In this document: positions 1-7,153 of the stretch, piece by piece | How the letters are laid out: every line of letters starts with the position of its first letter | Numbering within the stretch: position 1 is the stretch's first letter | DNA from: an uncultured virus (IMG/VR IMGVR_UViG_3300022217_000140) | Strand: one strand, 5' to 3' | Length of the DNA: 25,547 nt | IMG/VR virus record: IMGVR_UViG_3300022217_000140 | Location: 1 to 25,547 of that record | Program-made: the position numbers and the translations under genes | The notes under the pieces: generated by a model | Database searches by the model: none | Told to the model about the DNA's origin: nothing | What the model saw: only the letters and a program-made list of their open reading frames with translations

Positions 1-3000
1 CTCTATTAGAGGAGAATTCTGCGACACCCATATAGCCTTTTTCCTGCCCTGTCTCCAATTGTCCAACAGTATCCCCGCAATTTCGCGGCCCTTGCCAACG
101 CCAGTGCCATCACCAATAAAGTAACCTTTACGTTCTCCCGAAGGCAAGAGGGTAGTATGTGCCTGTCCAGCATAAACAACGGATTCTAACTGCGACAGGC
201 TTAATTTATTTTTCTCTATTACTTCTTTGGGAAGGTTCGGTGTGTAGGTTGGGTCAGGGGGGGCAACGGCAGACATGGCCGCTGATTCGACTAAAACGCC
301 AGGATGTTTTCCTGCGCCGACGATACTTACTTTTTGTGGTTGGTAATCTTCATAGATAGAATCGGAAAATTCTGCCTTTACTCGCTTCTGTCCGGTTCTC
401 TTGCTAATCCCAACGCCGGACTCCAAAGGTCTTTCAATCTGTCCAACACCGACCACGCCAAGTCTATCGGGGAGTCGTTGTTCTCCAACAGGTTTACCCA
501 GTCGCTGTTCTTCTGGTATCCCGATTCCAACGCCTTCATCAACTCCGATGGGTTCTCGTTCAACGACCCCTTCAACGTCTCCTCTATCTGGTAAGGTACT
601 TCTAACTCCCCTTCTTCTAGCCCCCACAGGGCCAGTTGGAGGCAATGTAGTATCGATGGGTTCAGCGCCTGTTTCTCTTGCCGCAGGAAGTCCCTCGCCT
701 TCTGGTTTAGCGGGTGCTGGTTCTCTTGTAATTCTTTCATTTCTAACTCCTTCTAAGAGGTTTACCGCCTCTTCGATATTGGCGACATCTCCGGTAATTC
801 TCTCCTGTCCGGTATCGGCAACCTTGTCAATTACTAATAACTGGTTCCCGTATGACGTGCCGTACTTTTTGTACTCAGAACCGGGGATACCAATATCTAC
901 TCTAATTATACCAAGGTTTTGCTGTTTTCGCCACCATGCTTTGAATTGGTTGGTATCTGTGACACCTTTACCAAGGATAGCGACTAACCTGCCGTTTGGT
1001 TCCAATCGTCGTAATGCTTGCTCTACATGCTTGAATCCTTCTGTTGAGCGTGTCTTTGATACTCTGCCGGCGGTTGCCGAAAAAGGCGGATTCATAACTA
1101 CAACGGTTGGCTTAATATCCTTTGATAGTATGTTGTGTAGTTGCTCGGCATTCTCTTTGAGGATTTCACCGAAATTAAGATGTTTAAGAATCGCCCTTCT
1201 TCTACCCGACAATTCATTCACGATCACATCGGCACCGGCTGTTTTTCCGAATACTGCTAACCCGCCGATCCCCGCCGAGGGCTCAAGATAAACCTCCCCT
1301 TTTTGGATATTTGCAACCCAATTAGCAAGATAAGCCAAATGCGGGGGCGTGGAGAACTGTTGGAACTGCTGAGATTCTTCTGTTCGCCGGGTTTGGGTCG
1401 GCAAGCGGTTGACAAGATTCCTAAACCAAGTAACTATACCTTTGGCCTGTGCCGCAGATTTAGTAGTGGGCGCATCCCGCCGCTTATTTATAATTAGATT
1501 AACTGCCAACTCCATAGCATCATAGGCATCCTTTGGCGTGTACTTTCCTTGCGCCTGGGTGCCACCGTATTCTTCGTCGGCAATAGCAAAAAGGTTTCTT
1601 GAGTTGTAGGCCCTGTCCGGGTCTTTTTCTAATAATACTACTAACCGTTCAGCGATTCTTATTTCAGGATCAACCGCCGTGGGTGGGGGTGTAGTTGGGG
1701 GTGTAGGCTGCGCTTCCGGGGGTACAGGCTTTTCACCAATCAAAGTAACTTGGCCTGTGCGCTTCTTTTCGCTTAACTCCGTAGCGTCAACCGATTGTTT
1801 TATCTTCCCGTCTACTATTAACTCTCCCTCGTCACCGGGCTCTCTCCCGGCTTCCTCTGGCTGTTGAATATCCGGGCGGCCTTCTTCTGGGCGTTCTGGT
1901 ATAGCTGCCTCTTCTTCAACGGCGGGAGTGACCGGTTGTTCCGCTTCTTCCAATCGATCTTCTTCTCCTGGAAGAACTTCTCCCTCAATGTCTCGTATTT
2001 GTGGGGCACGTTTTGTCTCCTCGTATTTTAAGGGAAGCTTAGTTTTCTTTTTATCGCTGGCCCATTCCTTAAATTCCTCAATTGGAATCTTGGTGATAGC
2101 ACCAAGTCCCTTCCATCCCCTCTCGTAATTCTCCCGATAACCCTTCCGGGCTGCTCTCATATTATCGTAACCGATAAGGACTTTATGTTCATCAAACTCC
2201 CCGGTATCCGGTTTAACTTGGTCAACAACATAGACATTATCTTTTTTCGGGCTATCCCCAACAAAGATATCTATGTGGTCTTTGTCCTTGCCAACAGTCC
2301 CTTTGATATAACCATAATGGGATTTCATTGTAATTTCCCAAGTTTCGCCATCGCTGTCTTTCCCTGTGCGCTTTGATCCCTTGGGATTCTCAATTGAGAT
2401 ATCAAGCCCTTGAATTTTTACATGACCCTTCTTGTACGTCCCCGCCTCCTTCTGTGCTTGTGTCGGCTGAGGAACGGCGTTTAGCGGAGATGTTGCCGCT
2501 TCGTTTGCGGCCTTGTCAATTTCTTTAGGTTCCGGGATTAATTTTTCTTTCTCCGCTAAGGCCGTTGGTGCAGGTGGGGACGGGACTGGAGATGGGATAG
2601 GGAGTTCTTCTTCAAAAACTCTCGCGGCCTCCTTGGCTGGTTTGATTTCTGGAACTCTTAAACCCAATCTTTCAATTTGTTCGCGGTCAATTTCTTCCGG
2701 GACCGGTAACCCTTCCCTTTCAATTCTCTCGCGTTCAAGTTCTTCTTGAACAGCTTCCGAGCCCAATAATGTCTCAGCAGCCTCCCTCGCTGTCGGTGGT
2801 GGGCCAATAGGCGGCTCAACTGGTGGACGTTCCTCAAAGACTCTCGCTGCTTCCTCGGCAGATTTATACTCCGGAACTCTTAATCCGAGCCTTTCTAATT
2901 GTGCAATATCTCGGTCTTCTTTAAGCCACAATACCTGAGCCGCTTCTTCTGCCGTTGAAGGCGGCCCCGTTACCTCTTCCCTGAATTCTTTTAACTTCCT

Positions 3001-4287
3001 CTTTATGAGATTGACATTGACGACTTCTTTTTCCGGGGTTATTTCTTCTTTGGTTTCCTGCAAAATATCAATACTATCTGTCGGCTCCCGTGCTACATCA
3101 ATCGCCCCAGACAAACCACCAGTCAATAATGTCATAAATACTGTCGGCCCGACAACATCTAATGCCTCTGCAATGGGGTCAGCTTCCGGCCGGATGCCGG
3201 TTATCTGCTCTATCCCGGCTTGCCCAGCTTGCTGTAATACTTCGGTAGTTACCTCCACGCCAAGAGTTTCTTTGATGAACTGTTTAACAATATTTTTGGC
3301 TCCACGCTTAGCCACCCCAGCAGCATCAAGACCAAATAGTTTTCCTAAGTATTTTGTTCCATAATACTCACCAGCGGCTTCTATGGTACCCGTAGCAATA
3401 GGAGCCAAACCCTGGCCGGATGCCCGGACCTTTTTAGCCTCTTCATATTTTCCTTGCGATTCCAAGTGTATCGCTTGTTCTTCTGCTGTATCGCGGGTTT
3501 GTTGCGCCTGGGATAATCCGAACATTGAGGCGGTTGCAACAGAGGCGATGTTATTAGCCATATTAGCCGCCTTATTTGCCTTGTCCATCAGTTCAGCGGC
3601 CCTAGCAGCATTACCAGCTATACTGGCTGCTTTAGATGCCTTAACAAGCTTCCCGACACCAGACAACACCCTGATACCTTTTCCCACAATTGCACCGGGA
3701 AGTACCGAAGGTGGGAGCATTTTTGCACCTTCATAAACAATACGCTCTAAACCCTTTCGTTTTTTCGGCGGTCCAAACCATTGAAGTTTTTTCGCATCTG
3801 CCCAATCTCCTAAATCTCTTCCTACTTCTTCAAGAACACCCCAAGAGAAATCTGGTACCCTGGTTGGATCACCACCCAATTCAGCAGTTGTCTCACGCAT
3901 AGTTTCTGTGATATCACCAGGCAAGCCAGCCCCAACAAATTCCATTGCTCTTCCGGCCATGCTAGGCAATTCAGTGGTCAAGCCTTCGACTCCGCCTCTT
4001 ATGGCTTCGGCAGCTATTTCACCCGTTATGGCTCCCCACCGACCAATTTGTTCTCGCATCGTTTTTTCTTGTTGGGGAGGTTGCTCAATTGTAGTAGGTG
4101 GGGGCATGTAGTAGGATGTGAAATTGTTCCTTATTTCCGATCTCTCACTTTCATGCAAATTGTAGAAATCACTATCAGCAAGATTCTTATCAAAGTAATT
4201 CTCTAAGATTGCCTGTTTCTCAGGGGCGGGCAACGCAAAATACTCAGGATCTTCATTCCACCTATCTATTTCATGAAAACGTGGCAT
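1..4287 (-). CDS. Large polyvalent virion/ejection protein, partial (at least 1429 aa): InPase + N6-adenine DNA methyltransferase + Strawberry-notch-type SF2 helicase
   Basis: Hand translation from the ATG at 4287 (MPRFHEIDRWNEDPEYF...) has no stop down to base 1. InPase motifs YKKGHVKIQGLDISIENPKGSKR, HYGYIKGTVGKDKDHIDIFVG and FDEHKVLIG (~2030-2520). MTase motifs QQFSTPP, LEPSAGIGGLA (~1255-1287) and VVMNPPFS (NPPF at 1081-1092). SNO motifs LSLSQLESVVYAGQAH and GYFIGDGTGVGKGREIAG (Walker A at 88-114). Confidence 0.92.
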   Translation of the reverse strand, partial: MPRFHEIDRWNEDPEYFALPAPEKQAILENYFDKNLADSDFYNLHESERSEIRNNFTSYYMPPPTTIEQPPQQEKTMREQIGRWGAITGEIAAEAIRGGVEGLTTELPSMAGRAMEFVGAGLPGDITETMRETTAELGGDPTRVPDFSWGVLEEVGRDLGDWADAKKLQWFGPPKKRKGLERIVYEGAKMLPPSVLPGAIVGKGIRVLSGVGKLVKASKAASIAGNAARAAELMDKANKAANMANNIASVATASMFGLSQAQQTRDTAEEQAIHLESQGKYEEAKKVRASGQGLAPIATGTIEAAGEYYGTKYLGKLFGLDAAGVAKRGAKNIVKQFIKETLGVEVTTEVLQQAGQAGIEQITGIRPEADPIAEALDVVGPTVFMTLLTGGLSGAIDVAREPTDSIDILQETKEEITPEKEVVNVNLIKRKLKEFREEVTGPPSTAEEAAQVLWLKEDRDIAQLERLGLRVPEYKSAEEAARVFEERPPVEPPIGPPPTAREAAETLLGSEAVQEELERERIEREGLPVPEEIDREQIERLGLRVPEIKPAKEAARVFEEELPIPSPVPSPPAPTALAEKEKLIPEPKEIDKAANEAATSPLNAVPQPTQAQKEAGTYKKGHVKIQGLDISIENPKGSKRTGKDSDGETWEITMKSHYGYIKGTVGKDKDHIDIFVGDSPKKDNVYVVDQVKPDTGEFDEHKVLIGYDNMRAARKGYRENYERGWKGLGAITKIPIEEFKEWASDKKKTKLPLKYEETKRAPQIRDIEGEVLPGEEDRLEEAEQPVTPAVEEEAAIPERPEEGRPDIQQPEEAGREPGDEGELIVDGKIKQSVDATELSEKKRTGQVTLIGEKPVPPEAQPTPPTTPPPTAVDPEIRIAERLVVLLEKDPDRAYNSRNLFAIADEEYGGTQAQGKYTPKDAYDAMELAVNLIINKRRDAPTTKSAAQAKGIVTWFRNLVNRLPTQTRRTEESQQFQQFSTPPHLAYLANWVANIQKGEVYLEPSAGIGGLAVFGKTAGADVIVNELSGRRRAILKHLNFGEILKENAEQLHNILSKDIKPTVVVMNPPFSATAGRVSKTRSTEGFKHVEQALRRLEPNGRLVAILGKGVTDTNQFKAWWRKQQNLGIIRVDIGIPGSEYKKYGTSYGNQLLVIDKVADTGQERITGDVANIEEAVNLLEGVRNERITREPAPAKPEGEGLPAARETGAEPIDTTLPPTGPVGARRRGVRSTLPDRGDVEGVVEREPIGVDEGVGIGIPEEQRLGKPVGEQRLPDRLGVVGVGQIERPLESGVGISKRTGQKRVKAEFSDSIYEDYQPQKVSIVGAGKHPGVLVESAAMSAVAPPDPTYTPNLPKEVIEKNKLSLSQLESVVYAGQAHTTLLPSGERKGYFIGDGTGVGKGREIAGILLDNWRQGRKKAIWVSQNSPLIE
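378..740 (-). CDS. Nested +1-frame gene (120 aa, acidic, predicted helical) inside the MTase-helicase linker
   Basis: AAGGAG Shine-Dalgarno 6 nt before ATG (gaaggagttagaaATG). ORF limits coincide with the low-complexity linker of the host protein. Globular-like composition (Leu/Glu/Asn, three Trp). Confidence 0.65.
   Translation of the reverse strand: MKELQENQHPLNQKARDFLRQEKQALNPSILHCLQLALWGLEEGELEVPYQIEETLKGSLNENPSELMKALESGYQKNSDWVNLLENNDSPIDLAWSVLDRLKDLWSPALGLAREPDRSE
1818..2009 (-). CDS. Nested +1-frame gene (63 aa, very basic) inside the InPase-MTase linker
   Basis: GAGGAG 7 nt before GTG (acgaggagacaaaacGTG). Ends in three tandem stops TAA TAG TAG (1812-1820). Starts immediately after the InPase domain. 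Confidence 0.65.
   Translation of the reverse strand: MPHKYETLREKFFQEKKIDWKKRNNRSLPPLKKRQLYQNAQKKAARIFNSQRKPGESPVTRES
2608..2898 (-). repeat. Imperfect internal duplication in the polyvalent gene (two ~69-nt copies, 222 nt apart)
   Basis: LERLGLRVPEYKSAEEAARVFEE (2830-2898) versus IERLGLRVPEIKPAKEAARVFEE (2608-2676). Also GPPSTAEEAA versus GPPPTAREAA nearby. Confidence 0.85.
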
Positions 4288-4290
4288 GTT

Positions 4291-5841
4291 TTACCTTTGC
4301 AAAGGAACGGCAGGTCGAATGCCCAATCTTGGTTGTTGATATGGTGCACTGGAAATCGTATCAACTCCATTTACAAATCGGTTCGGATGATCCAAATCTT
4401 TATGAACAGAGGGCCAATGATATTCCCCATCACGTGGATCTATTTCTGGCTCCATGCCTTGTTGGTAGGCAGCTCTATAATCATATTTCTGCCTTGGATC
4501 ATCGGGATCTGGGTTTATTCTTGTTTTATTTGCCCAAAAGGAATACCATTCCTGAAACTTTTGCTCTTCTCCTGGAGGAAGTTTTGTCCTTGACCTAGTC
4601 CTTCCACCGGGACTCGTCGGCCTTGTCCGATATTGCTGCCATGTTGGCTTTTCTTCTTCTGGCTCTATTCCAGGCGATATAAACTCAGACATATCATCAA
4701 ACACTTTCCTTGCACGACGAGCATAATTGAGATTCTCGCGTTCTTTTGCCGTTAAAGATTTCGGGTCTTTCCTCGCCTTTGCAATAAGATCCCAAGCAAC
4801 ATCAAAAGCACTTTTGGATTCCTCAATAAGATCACCAAATTCATCATACAAACTTTCTTTTTTATGGAATGGTCTCATAAGAAGATCAAGCTTCTTTTTG
4901 TATTCATCCAACGTAGCACTTTTTTTTATCTCGTAGCCTAGTTTTTTTCTTTTCTGTGCTGGAGTCAATTCTTCTCCAATTATCTTTTCGTGCTCTTTTA
5001 TATCTAAACCAAGCTGTTGCGCCTTTGTCATCGGCATTTTTCCTTTATATGGCCTTGCCGGCCCCCTGACAGGATTACCATCTGGACCCATTATCCATGT
5101 GTTTATAAAAGTACCTTCCCTGGTTCTAAATGGTATCTCTTGAGCATTCTTTTTCGCCACAGCTGCTTCGGATTCTTTGGAAGCTTTCAGATAGTTTTCC
5201 GGGGTCATTGTCATTTTCACAAATCTCTTGAAATTCTCAATGGATTTGAAAGTGAGTAAACCTTTCCCTTTTCCTTCTTCTTCAAGAAAAAGAGCTATTT
5301 CCTTACCCGCCAACCCTGGTTTACTATCCCATTCCGCTAATGATGGAGCATCTGGTTTATCCGAGCGAAAAGCAAGTATTGCTTTTCTCCTGTCGGGCCA
5401 TTTCTTATTGAAAGCATTTACATATCTTGCCGCCCCCTCCCTTATATTTCCCGATTCTATGAGAGCAGTTCCTAAATCAAATTCACTTTTCATTACATCA
5501 TAATTTTTTTTCTTCTGATAATCTTCTTTTGCCCAATCAAATCTTTCTTGCTGCCTTGTTTCTTGTCTTTTTTTATACTTACGCTCTTCTGCCCGGATTT
5601 CCTCTCTTTCCTTTCTCTTTCGTGTTTCTTGTTTTTCTTTATACTTACGCTCTTCTGCCCAGATTTCCTCTCTTTCCTTTCTCTTTCGTGTTTCTTGTTT
5701 TTCTTTATACTTACGCTCTTCTGCCCGGATTTCCTCTCTTTCCTTTCTCTTTCGTTCTTCTCTCTCAGATTCAGCCCAAAGAGATAAACCTGTTCTTATT
5801 CCCCTATCCAATCTTTCAAATGATCTATCTGAAATTGGCAT
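4291..5841 (-). CDS. Probable internal virion/ejection protein (516 aa) with charged N-terminal repeats and an extra C-terminal domain
   Basis: Lies between the small pilot-like gene and the giant polyvalent gene. GAGGGA SD upstream. Helical, charged composition. Confidence 0.6.
   Translation of the reverse strand: MPISDRSFERLDRGIRTGLSLWAESEREERKRKEREEIRAEERKYKEKQETRKRKEREEIWAEERKYKEKQETRKRKEREEIRAEERKYKKRQETRQQERFDWAKEDYQKKKNYDVMKSEFDLGTALIESGNIREGAARYVNAFNKKWPDRRKAILAFRSDKPDAPSLAEWDSKPGLAGKEIALFLEEEGKGKGLLTFKSIENFKRFVKMTMTPENYLKASKESEAAVAKKNAQEIPFRTREGTFINTWIMGPDGNPVRGPARPYKGKMPMTKAQQLGLDIKEHEKIIGEELTPAQKRKKLGYEIKKSATLDEYKKKLDLLMRPFHKKESLYDEFGDLIEESKSAFDVAWDLIAKARKDPKSLTAKERENLNYARRARKVFDDMSEFISPGIEPEEEKPTWQQYRTRPTSPGGRTRSRTKLPPGEEQKFQEWYSFWANKTRINPDPDDPRQKYDYRAAYQQGMEPEIDPRDGEYHWPSVHKDLDHPNRFVNGVDTISSAPYQQPRLGIRPAVPLQR
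5557..5754. repeat. 3 x 66-bp near-perfect tandem repeat (RKRKEREEIRAEERKYKEKQET)
   Basis: atacttacgctcttctgccc recurs at 5575, 5641 and 5707. Confidence 0.97.
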
Positions 5842-5859
5842 ATTTTTCCCTCATTTATT

Positions 5860-6747
5860 TTATACCATACCGCCAATGCCGCTACCGATACTGTAACCTG
5901 CCATTGCTTCTTGCGGACCATAAAAAGCCCCAAGACCAGTACCTGCAATGCCACCCAACAAAGATCCCTTTTTATTAAAATCGTCCATAACCCTGCTAGC
6001 AAGGGGAGCATATGTCGATGCAGCCCCACTATAAGAAGTTGCCGCTCGTGCGTAGGGATCAACACTAGGGCCTACCCTAGTTTGATAAACTCCCCTCCCA
6101 AGGCCAAAGCCCAACCTTGCAAATTTCTCTTCTTCCGCCTTTGTCCTTGCTGCTCTTCGAGCCCCTGCAACATTTCTTGCAGTTTCTAAAGCTGCTTGAT
6201 TTGCCAAGTTTGCAAAAGTTGAAGAACTTGGATCAATGCCATATCGTGAAATTTCCCTCCGACGCTTACCTTCTCCAAGTCTTGTGGCACTAATAACATC
6301 TGCTTGCGCCTCAGATACTCTTTCTCCGACATCAATCCCTTCAAGGGCTTGTCTATAAAATTCTTTTGTTGCTGGTGCTTGTTGTTCTAATGTTACTTTC
6401 GAGGCCTCTGATATTATGGGCAATAATTCTCTGTTCGCTTTGGCGGCTTCTATCTCATACGGCAAGAAAAATTCTTTGTAAAGTTCCCATTGTTGCTGTG
6501 CCATTTTCTTTTGTTGACTGGCGACTCCCCTTATAGCCGCTCTTGTTTCATCATATTCAGTATCGCCACTATCACCAACGGAAGTTTGACCAAGAATTTT
6601 TTTGGGAAAATATCCACCAGGATCTTGCACCCAATCACCCCAGGTCGTTGTTATGCCACCTGCCCCTGGCTCATCCCATATGTCTTCTGTGAAGAACTCC
6701 CCAACATCGCTGACAGCGCCACTAATAGCTTCCCCAATATCGCCCAT
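5860..6747 (-). CDS. Probable DNA ejection/pilot protein (295 aa)
   Basis: Ala/Gln/Arg-rich helical middle and Gly-rich hydrophobic C-terminus (LLGGIAGTGLGAFYG...IGSGIGGMV), typical of the smallest podoviral ejection protein. GAGGA SD. Confidence 0.6.
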   Translation of the reverse strand: MGDIGEAISGAVSDVGEFFTEDIWDEPGAGGITTTWGDWVQDPGGYFPKKILGQTSVGDSGDTEYDETRAAIRGVASQQKKMAQQQWELYKEFFLPYEIEAAKANRELLPIISEASKVTLEQQAPATKEFYRQALEGIDVGERVSEAQADVISATRLGEGKRRREISRYGIDPSSSTFANLANQAALETARNVAGARRAARTKAEEEKFARLGFGLGRGVYQTRVGPSVDPYARAATSYSGAASTYAPLASRVMDDFNKKGSLLGGIAGTGLGAFYGPQEAMAGYSIGSGIGGMV

Positions 6748-6748
6748 T

Positions 6749-7153
6749 TTATATCCTCACCAAATATAATATTTTATTGTTTTCATGTTTAATGCATAAA
6801 ATTCTTTTTTTAAAATACTTAATGATAATATTGTTAGCTTTTAATCTTTTTTTATCAGCATCAATAACAAACTTATCAAATCCTAATATAATCACATCTT
6901 CTTCTATTTTCTTAATTAAACCGTGAAAGACTCTACCTGCAATAAGATTATTCGCATTGATAATAAAATGTTGAAGTATGGGTAATGTGCGTATAAATCT
7001 TAACGTCGCCATTCCGAGCAACGTATCTTTTCCAACAGCAATCATTGTTTCGCTATCTTCAAATAAAACAGCATGTTTTTTAACTCCCTTTTTCTGAAGA
7101 AGTTTTAAAACCTCTTTATAATCAGTATCCATATTCATGGATCTAATAAACAT
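6749..7153 (-). CDS. GNAT-fold acetyltransferase-like protein (134 aa)
   Basis: Pattern IAVGKDTLLGMATL...LQHFII...GRVFHGLIKKIEED...GFDKFVI. Its position just before the ejection genes matches T7 gp13/P22 gp14-type genes. Confidence 0.45.
   Translation of the reverse strand: MFIRSMNMDTDYKEVLKLLQKKGVKKHAVLFEDSETMIAVGKDTLLGMATLRFIRTLPILQHFIINANNLIAGRVFHGLIKKIEEDVIILGFDKFVIDADKKRLKANNIIIKYFKKRILCIKHENNKILYLVRI

Follow-up and report, generated by a model that had tools for sequence, protein, structure and literature searches.

In phage lambda, the Rz1 gene is located in the +1 frame of Rz. Embedded spanin genes have been described as small phage genes with their own start, which lie inside a larger gene on the same strand but in another reading frame (PMC6139136, PMC5295617), and an overlap in a disordered region has been reported for the hepatitis B virus (HBV) polymerase, whose interdomain spacer overlaps with preS (PMC9093120). 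Also related are polyvalent proteins with a DarB-type dyad such as DarB of phage P1, in which a methyltransferase is fused to an ATPase of the SWI2/SNF2 clade (Iyer et al., 2017, PMC5512222). Here we analyzed a fragment of 25,547 nucleotides (25.5 kb, referred to as the window) of the uncultured-virus record IMG/VR IMGVR_UViG_3300022217_000140, which is about 46% complete. The minus strand of the window contains a giant open reading frame (ORF) for a polyvalent protein, referred to as the host protein, and a second, small ORF is nested in its +1 frame. Taking the sequence evidence together, we consider it very likely that the ORF at 740..378 (-) is a genuine gene, embedded in the disordered linker between the methyltransferase and the helicase of the giant protein.

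The arrangement resembles Rz/Rz1 in that a complete small phage gene is nested out of frame on the same strand. However, Rz and Rz1 form a two-subunit complex with constraints on both frames, whereas the host frame in the window appears to be an unconstrained disordered tether, and the nested frame encodes a predicted soluble helical protein of an unrelated family, which also occurs free-standing and whose link to the host protein is putative. As in HBV, a second gene is accommodated, in a different frame, by a disordered and dispensable-looking spacer between the domains of an enzyme. HBV, however, infects animals and has a tiny genome made up almost entirely of overlaps, whereas the present arrangement occurs in large dsDNA phage genomes and in plasmids, for which compaction is no obvious driver, and the gene lies wholly within the linker. 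The host gene itself is a DarB-type methyltransferase-helicase dyad of polyvalent proteins, defined by an N6-adenine methyltransferase with an NPP[YF] motif N-terminal to a SWI2/SNF2-clade ATPase: an NPPF methyltransferase is encoded 5' of a Strawberry-notch-like ATPase in a giant phage protein beside virion genes. The nested gene is additional to the dyad as described in the main text of PMC5512222. This main text contains neither the word "overlapping" nor a second reading frame in the dyad, and no description of a nested gene in a methyltransferase-helicase dyad was found in it or by a literature search. As context only, ArdA, Ocr and KlcA/ArdB are comparable as small, mostly acidic phage or plasmid proteins beside restriction evasion, but no sequence or fold similarity of the nested product to them was detected with Pfam, NCBIfam, PADLOC, PDB profiles, Foldseek and VIA-align. 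Embedded out-of-frame phage genes and overlaps in disordered spacers are known, and what appears to be new is this location together with a previously unnamed family.

The +1 reading frame in the methyltransferase-helicase linker

The analysis followed up a sequence-only reading of the window, which had described a same-strand +1 ORF of 120 codons that starts at the end of the methyltransferase domain. This ORF was confirmed at 740..378, wholly inside the host ORF 4287..1 on the same strand and with a frame offset of +1; the earlier description had omitted that both lie on the minus strand. A Shine-Dalgarno (SD) motif plus start codon, said to be encoded by the host residues LEGVRNE, was also found as described. 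The sequence 5' of the nested start is cctcttagaaggagttagaaATG, with AAGGAG located 6 nt before the ATG within the host codons L-E-G-V-R-N-E, and the ATG falls in the host codons N-E of ..LLEGVRNE. The predicted pairing with the anti-SD sequence (-8.3 kcal/mol) is among the top 2.5% of positions in the locus. At the other end, the nested stop at host residue 1304 precedes the Strawberry-notch domain, as had been claimed: the stop lies just before ..AEFSDSIYEDYQPQK of the host protein, in which ..KRVKAEFSDSIYEDYQPQK follows, and the Pfam domain AAA_34 begins at residue 1327. The low complexity attributed to the host frame is evident from the composition of the linker, of which 63% is G, E, R, P or V, compared with 41% across the whole host protein.

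The nested frame recurs in related viruses. In L002, the first relative found via the host protein (55% identical), a +1 ORF of 119 amino acids is present at the same place, and its product is 47% identical to P0001, the product of the nested ORF in the window (BLASTP E 5e-35). Searches with the small protein revealed eight further loci with a family member nested in +1 within an ORF that extends without stops through the entire locus. For an unbiased sample, viral contigs were searched with the methyltransferase module only and the best 80 of 332 relatives were analyzed (44-57% identity; the related viral contigs range from ~13 to >100 kb). A hidden Markov model (HMM) of the family matches 60 of these 80 loci, and all 60 matches are in the +1 frame, inside the giant ORF and directly 3' of the methyltransferase, with no match in any other frame in the 80-locus sample; a second-round profile increased the number to 65. 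An ATG within the host codons R-[N/D]-x is present in 64 of the 80 loci. The +1 ORF that begins there has 108-152 codons in every case (median 123.5), 56 of the 64 products are distinct, and the predicted SD pairing is -8 kcal/mol or stronger in 49 of the 64 loci; in a set of 12 nested loci, it is -8.2 kcal/mol or stronger in 11. This position of the linker, which we call the slot, is covered by a +1 open run of at least 100 codons in 78 of the 80 loci and by such a +2 run in five. Only L060, L063, the truncated L078 and L090 have neither a family match nor an ORF of this kind. Conservation of the SD, the ATG and the open +1 frame among homologues, proposed as a check by the sequence-only reading, was thus found, and the data are the opposite of the frequent +1 stops and the lacking SD conservation that it had named as counter-evidence.

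In 11 of the 64 loci (9 distinct), the +1 ORF starts at the same ATG and has 113-152 codons, but its product is not recognisable as a member of the family (hhalign probability <= 7%). The flanking domains of these loci are still ~50% identical. Judging from these sequences, the slot may hold several families or one very fast-evolving family.

The openness of the two frames was compared with chance expectations. The longest +1 stop-free run in the host gene of the window is that of the linker with 124 codons, and the second longest has 73. When synonymous codons of the host residues are resampled according to gene-wide codon usage, 5.6 +1 stops are expected with a probability of 0.0016 for none, and permuting only the codons of the linker itself results in P = 0.0097 for a stop-free +1 frame. 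As the sequence-only reading had chosen the longest ORF in a 25-kb window, the openness of this one ORF is only suggestive as evidence against chance, and in our view it is the comparison between sequences that decides against a chance ORF. Given the nested protein, 4.4-10.2 stops are expected in the host frame, but none is present in nine out of nine loci (P <= 0.0064 each). Given the host protein, the probability of an open +1 frame is 0.0016, 0.0026 and 0.06 in three loci. Both frames are held open.

The two frames differ in conservation. In the first nine loci, the nested frame outscores the host frame in 34 of 36 pairs, with 15 invariant columns versus 6. For 1540 pairs we calculated z-scores relative to shuffled sequences, which remove the effect of composition. 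The median z-scores are 4.14 for the nested frame, 1.31 for the host frame and 0.71 for the third frame (+2), the nested frame exceeds the host frame in 1276 of the 1540 pairs (907 of 946 within the family), and a z-score of at least 5 is reached by 612 pairs in the nested, 43 in the host and 34 in the third frame. The positions of nucleotide differences were analyzed as well. The flanking domains have difference rates of.37/.24/.66 at host positions 1/2/3. Within the overlap, the periodicity of the nine closest pairs switches to that of the nested frame (.48/.26/.56 for the window and L007, for instance): the host third position, normally free, is the least variable in eight of the nine pairs and nearly so in the ninth, and the nested position 3 is the most variable in all nine, frame-blind nucleotide alignment included. 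Positional conservation, and with it apparent purifying selection, is found in the nested frame and not in the host frame.

The small-protein family and its free-standing and plasmid relatives

A phmmer search with P0001 against 1.84 billion representatives retrieved 71 matches at E <= 1e-3, seven of them at E <= 1e-10, and nearly all of the 71 are 100-140 amino acids long and aligned end to end. The family is characterized by the motifs N..PLNQ.AK..L, PDP..LYCLQLA.WGLE.G and P.DLAW.VLD.L. The earlier impression that the nested frame reads like an ordinary helical protein is in line with a confident six-helix AlphaFold2 model, based on an alignment of 43 sequences, with a mean predicted local distance difference test (pLDDT) of 87.3 and a predicted template modelling score (pTM) of 0.81. 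The host-frame linker, modelled as a control with 9 homologous linkers, has no secondary structure (pLDDT 54, pTM 0.11), but the comparison is inexact because the two runs differ in alignment depth (43 rows versus 9), which has to be counted against our interpretation. The family is mostly acidic with a median isoelectric point (pI) of 4.8; as individual members reach a pI of 9.6, it is not an obligate DNA mimic.

Pfam and PHROGs contain no family for P0001, and the 43 family members have no match in NCBIfam and PADLOC, matches of single members only in Pfam (E >= 0.0058) and a match of one member in PHROGs (0.0011). A profile search of the PDB with the family yielded nothing convincing, the best Foldseek hits of the model have an E value of 2.2 against the PDB and 0.29 against BFVD, and VIA-align against 48,161 chains reached a best Z of 3.9 with none at 5 or above. 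The predicted fold of this mostly acidic, six-helix protein thus had no counterpart among solved structures in these searches, although an absent structural match does not establish a new fold. In reference phages, tblastn of P0001 found one weak match (E 0.2), and neither blastn with the region nor tblastn with the host piece found any. A tblastn search of plasmids with P0001 had no match at E <= 0.01, a search of the ESM Atlas returned no usable match and one further search for homologous proteins a single relative.

Three members of the family deserve a separate remark. P0008 (554 amino acids) has an in-frame family domain at its C-terminal end (residues 440-546), preceded by a low-complexity region and by an N-terminal part that has no Pfam match and no methyltransferase domain; the protein may reflect either a genuine fusion or a wrong gene call. 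In L005 (2375-2932) and L016 (1-543), the small gene departs midway from its close relatives in a frameshift-like manner, and by sequence these copies would be either pseudogenes or low-coverage assembly errors.

Free-standing copies with their own SD and without a giant ORF were found at six loci from about four lineages. Their neighbours are genes for a plasmid RepA, an integrase, a transposase and TIR protein, a WYL regulator, a beta-lactamase-family protein and a Type ISP-like enzyme. The free-standing copies start at the same methionine as the nested homologues. In L006, the small gene (3917-4303) is located 56 nt downstream of the gene for a 1162-amino-acid protein (373-3861) with N6_Mtase and Type_ISP_C domains, the sole case in which a free-standing copy is once more accompanied by a methyltransferase. 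In the free-standing genes, the -1 frame, which corresponds to the former host frame, contains 0-1 stops compared with 5.8-7.3 expected from local codon usage (P <= 0.009 in six of six), an effect that is weaker when only the genes' own codons are permuted. This almost stop-free frame looks like a footprint of former double coding.

On plasmids, homologues of the small gene surfaced only through the host protein and hhalign. Relatives of the host protein occur in 589 plasmid records, the closest three of which (two from Methylomonas and one from Methylotuvimicrobium alcaliphilum 20Z) are 47-55% identical. At the corresponding position, these three and a Thioflavicoccus plasmid contain either a divergent nested +1 ORF (114 codons) or a +1 frame without stops, and the divergent nested homologues on plasmids of Methylococcales and Chromatiales are related to the family with an hhalign probability of 95% (E 2.9e-8). 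In M. alcaliphilum 20Z, the nested ORF is located at 3683-4027 of L024 on plasmid NC_016108.1. The expectation that gene callers would miss the nested gene applies to two of the Methylococcales plasmids carrying it, both from cultured methanotrophs, for which the RefSeq-derived gene tables list the giant coding sequence (CDS) alone. In the Thioflavicoccus mobilis plasmid NC_019941.1 (L031, locus 1845-6852), no CDS is listed over the giant-gene region, which apparently falls into two ORFs (338 and 1311 codons) before a Strawberry-notch C-terminal protein with an annotation of its own. The giant gene may be annotated there as a pseudogene, and the +1 frame over the slot is open.

Alternative explanations and possible function

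The double-coding linker proposed by the sequence-only reading is supported by +1 homologues in 60 of 80 loci, by free-standing homologues, by conservation in the nested frame and by a confident predicted fold. Nevertheless, several observations weigh against it. With raw BLOSUM scores, the nested frame exceeds the host frame in only 618 of the 1540 pairs and in 532 of 946 within the family, because the glycine- and charge-rich host frame matches itself in any register and the raw score therefore fails to separate the frames. Codon-position counts of divergent pairs depend on the frame chosen to guide the alignment, with rates of.52/.48/.56 at the host positions when the pooled alignment is host-guided, and frame-blind pairs at 60-70% identity are flat (.39/.39/.37 in 251 pairs) and thus uninformative. 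Many representatives of the family originate from contigs of 0.5-1.5 kb and might themselves be nested ORFs, so that not all of them are independent evidence for stand-alone genes. The SD of M. alcaliphilum is weak (-3.3 kcal/mol), and the ORF is absent from the P/A-rich linkers of four more distant alphaproteobacterial relatives (35-49% identity). Furthermore, a scan of window positions 1-1600 for sigma-70-like promoters found no site upstream of the nested ORF, and a search of RNA runs for the stretch found none containing the sequence.

The simplest alternative is a compositional accident: a linker rich in G, E, R and P with few L, I, V and M codons offers few chances for +1 stops, and the open frame would remain untranslated. 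In agreement with this, the openness of the +1 frame given the host protein is unremarkable in six of the first nine loci (P 0.23-0.60), open runs of at least 100 codons are common outside the slot of these genes (100 in the +1 and 97 in the +2 frame across the 80 loci), and an antisense ORF of 296 codons overlaps the same region. However, composition does not explain an amino-acid identity of 30-50% that is kept in one frame only, the same ATG in 64 loci with an SD in 49, the matches to free-standing genes, a fold with a pLDDT of 87 and a slot that is open in +1 in 78 of 80 loci versus 5 of 80 in +2, and we therefore regard the accident as very improbable. Alternatively, the nucleic acid itself could be conserved as an RNA structure, a packaging signal or a regulatory site, with the open frame as a by-product. 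Nothing specific speaks for such a function, an idea that arises only from the dual constraints in the region, whereas the codon periodicity in the nested frame, the detection at the protein level far past nucleotide similarity and the maintenance of the ORF by free-standing copies in unrelated contexts leave it a next to negligible probability.

Frameshift products are common in phage structural genes, and the same-strand +1 geometry would also be suited for programmed ribosomal frameshifting, which would lead to a truncated fusion of the methyltransferase with an additional domain instead of a separate small protein. P0008 with its in-frame domain at the C terminus would fit such a product, but its N-terminal part lacks the methyltransferase domain. 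A +1 stop lies 1-4 codons before the ATG in seven of nine loci, so that a shift site could hardly be accommodated, and the conserved ATG, the strong SD and the free-standing homologues that begin at the same methionine also argue for a separate start. Frameshifting is consequently improbable in our opinion. We prefer a gene that is embedded in the linker and translated on its own. According to this model, the host frame would only have to remain open as a flexible connection of the two enzyme modules, and the nested frame of the same DNA would carry a sequence kept by selection. The SD and the ATG, which are made up of nucleotides of the host codons ..E-G-V-R-N-E where the methyltransferase ends, would allow ribosomes to initiate internally on the giant mRNA, resulting in a separate protein of ~14 kDa. 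Internal initiation and translation of the nested ORF are thus probable on the basis of these signals.

The function of the small protein is a matter of guesswork. It might be a trans-acting accessory or counter-defence factor beside the DarB-like protein, a tentative proposal to which we give somewhat less than an even chance and which we favour because mobile elements that lack the giant gene contain free-standing copies and because the slot sequence has strongly diversified, far faster than the flanking domains. The small protein could also be real but dedicated to its host as a chaperone, a packaging aid or an inhibitor of the methyltransferase-helicase. The start of the nested ORF exactly at the end of the methyltransferase would be in line with such a partner, as would the strict co-encoding inside the host gene, which implies that both proteins are co-expressed from one mRNA. 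One free-standing copy is located 56 nt downstream of a Type ISP-like methyltransferase gene, and the product is small, acidic (median pI 4.8) and helical, which is also true for some secretion chaperones. However, the other free-standing copies have no methyltransferase or helicase as neighbour, and the slot is unrecognisable in 11 of 80 loci in which the flanks stay ~50% identical. A complex prediction of the methyltransferase module with the nested protein gave a score of 0.00 and no answer, which speaks neither for nor against binding. As a guess, we prefer the accessory or counter-defence role over a dedicated chaperone or inhibitor, which seems rather unlikely to us.

With regard to the origin of the family, nested and free-standing members interleave in an 18-sequence tree with an arbitrary root, which requires four state changes, at least two of them forced by well-supported branches. 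No remnants of the host gene were detected around the free-standing copies beyond ~8 codons overlapping the SD and the start. Together with the nearly stop-free former host frame of the free-standing copies, this pattern fits a birth in the linker followed by escape, but is no proof of it, and the gene may instead have been captured, as the sequence-only reading had also considered. It is conceivable, although on the doubtful side, that the linker is a conserved slot for embedded genes, in which the family arose by overprinting and quickly diversified in an arms race, and from which it repeatedly escaped to plasmids and integrative elements.

Features of the host gene and implications

The minus strand of the window contains genes for the large terminase subunit, a portal or adaptor protein, the major head protein, an internal virion protein and a tail-fibre-like protein, followed by the giant ORF (Table 1). 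This gene order suggests that the host protein may be packaged in the virion and ejected. The giant ORF leaves the window at its end, and its first 1429 codons are present. PHROG DNA-methyltransferase matches cover the host residues 973-1115, and AAA_34, the N-terminal domain of Strawberry-notch-type ATPases, matches residues 1327-1428 (E 5e-41). The remainder of the helicase is found in frame in the relative L002 and, for the gene of the window itself, lies beyond the window end. Window positions 1-1500 are matched without a difference by an independent assembly, which may come from the source sample, and a second study contains two identical pieces of 151 nt.

Table 1. Coordinates of the nested ORF and the modules of the host gene in the window, and loci of related sequences.
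Feature	Position	Strand	Remarks
Nested ORF, product P0001	378..740	-	120 codons + TAA, +1 frame of host gene
Shine-Dalgarno-like AAGGAG	747..752	-	6 nt 5' of nested ATG, within host codons E-G
Giant polyvalent host ORF	1..4287	-	First 1429 codons; ORF list and Pfam/PHROG
InPase domain of host	2059-2460 (residues 610-743)	-	Domain search
Methyltransferase module of host	742..1686 (residues 868-1182)	-	MNPPFS motif; ends ..LLEGVR
Host-frame linker	376..741 (residues 1183-1304)	-	G/E/R/P/V-rich, predicted disordered, open, sequence not conserved
Start of Strawberry-notch-type helicase module	1..375 (residues 1305-1429)	-	Module truncated by window end
Loci with unrecognisable slot ORFs	~2350-2800 in each locus		L048, L053, L061/L062, L067, L070/L071, L079, L083, L084, L085
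Free-standing loci			L004, L006, L012, L019, L020, L021

Two further features of the host gene were noticed. A motif of ~30 residues (..ERLGLRVPE[YI]K.A.EAARVFEE..) is present twice at host residues ~465-560 (window ~2610-2900, minus strand), separated by a proline- and glutamate-rich stretch, and looks like an internal repeat. The antisense ORF of 296 codons at 401..1291 on the plus strand overlaps the methyltransferase and the linker. The counterpart runs in relatives vary from 93 to 409 codons, and as the length is not conserved, this ORF was treated as a chance product.

The nested gene is omitted by standard pipelines, yet it is present in 60-76 of the 80 relatives sampled out of at least 332 viral relatives. 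As it is unannotated and nevertheless recurrent, a whole family of proteins of mobile elements has therefore been unseen. Furthermore, interdomain linkers of giant polyvalent proteins can hold a second and better-conserved message, which provides a clean natural system for the origin of overlapping genes and for the sharing of constraint between two frames. The arrangement is also found on plasmids of the cultivable and well-studied methanotroph Methylotuvimicrobium alcaliphilum 20Z and is therefore directly testable. Should the small protein indeed serve DarB-like systems as a counter-defence or accessory factor, it would be a new component of the establishment biology of phages and plasmids.

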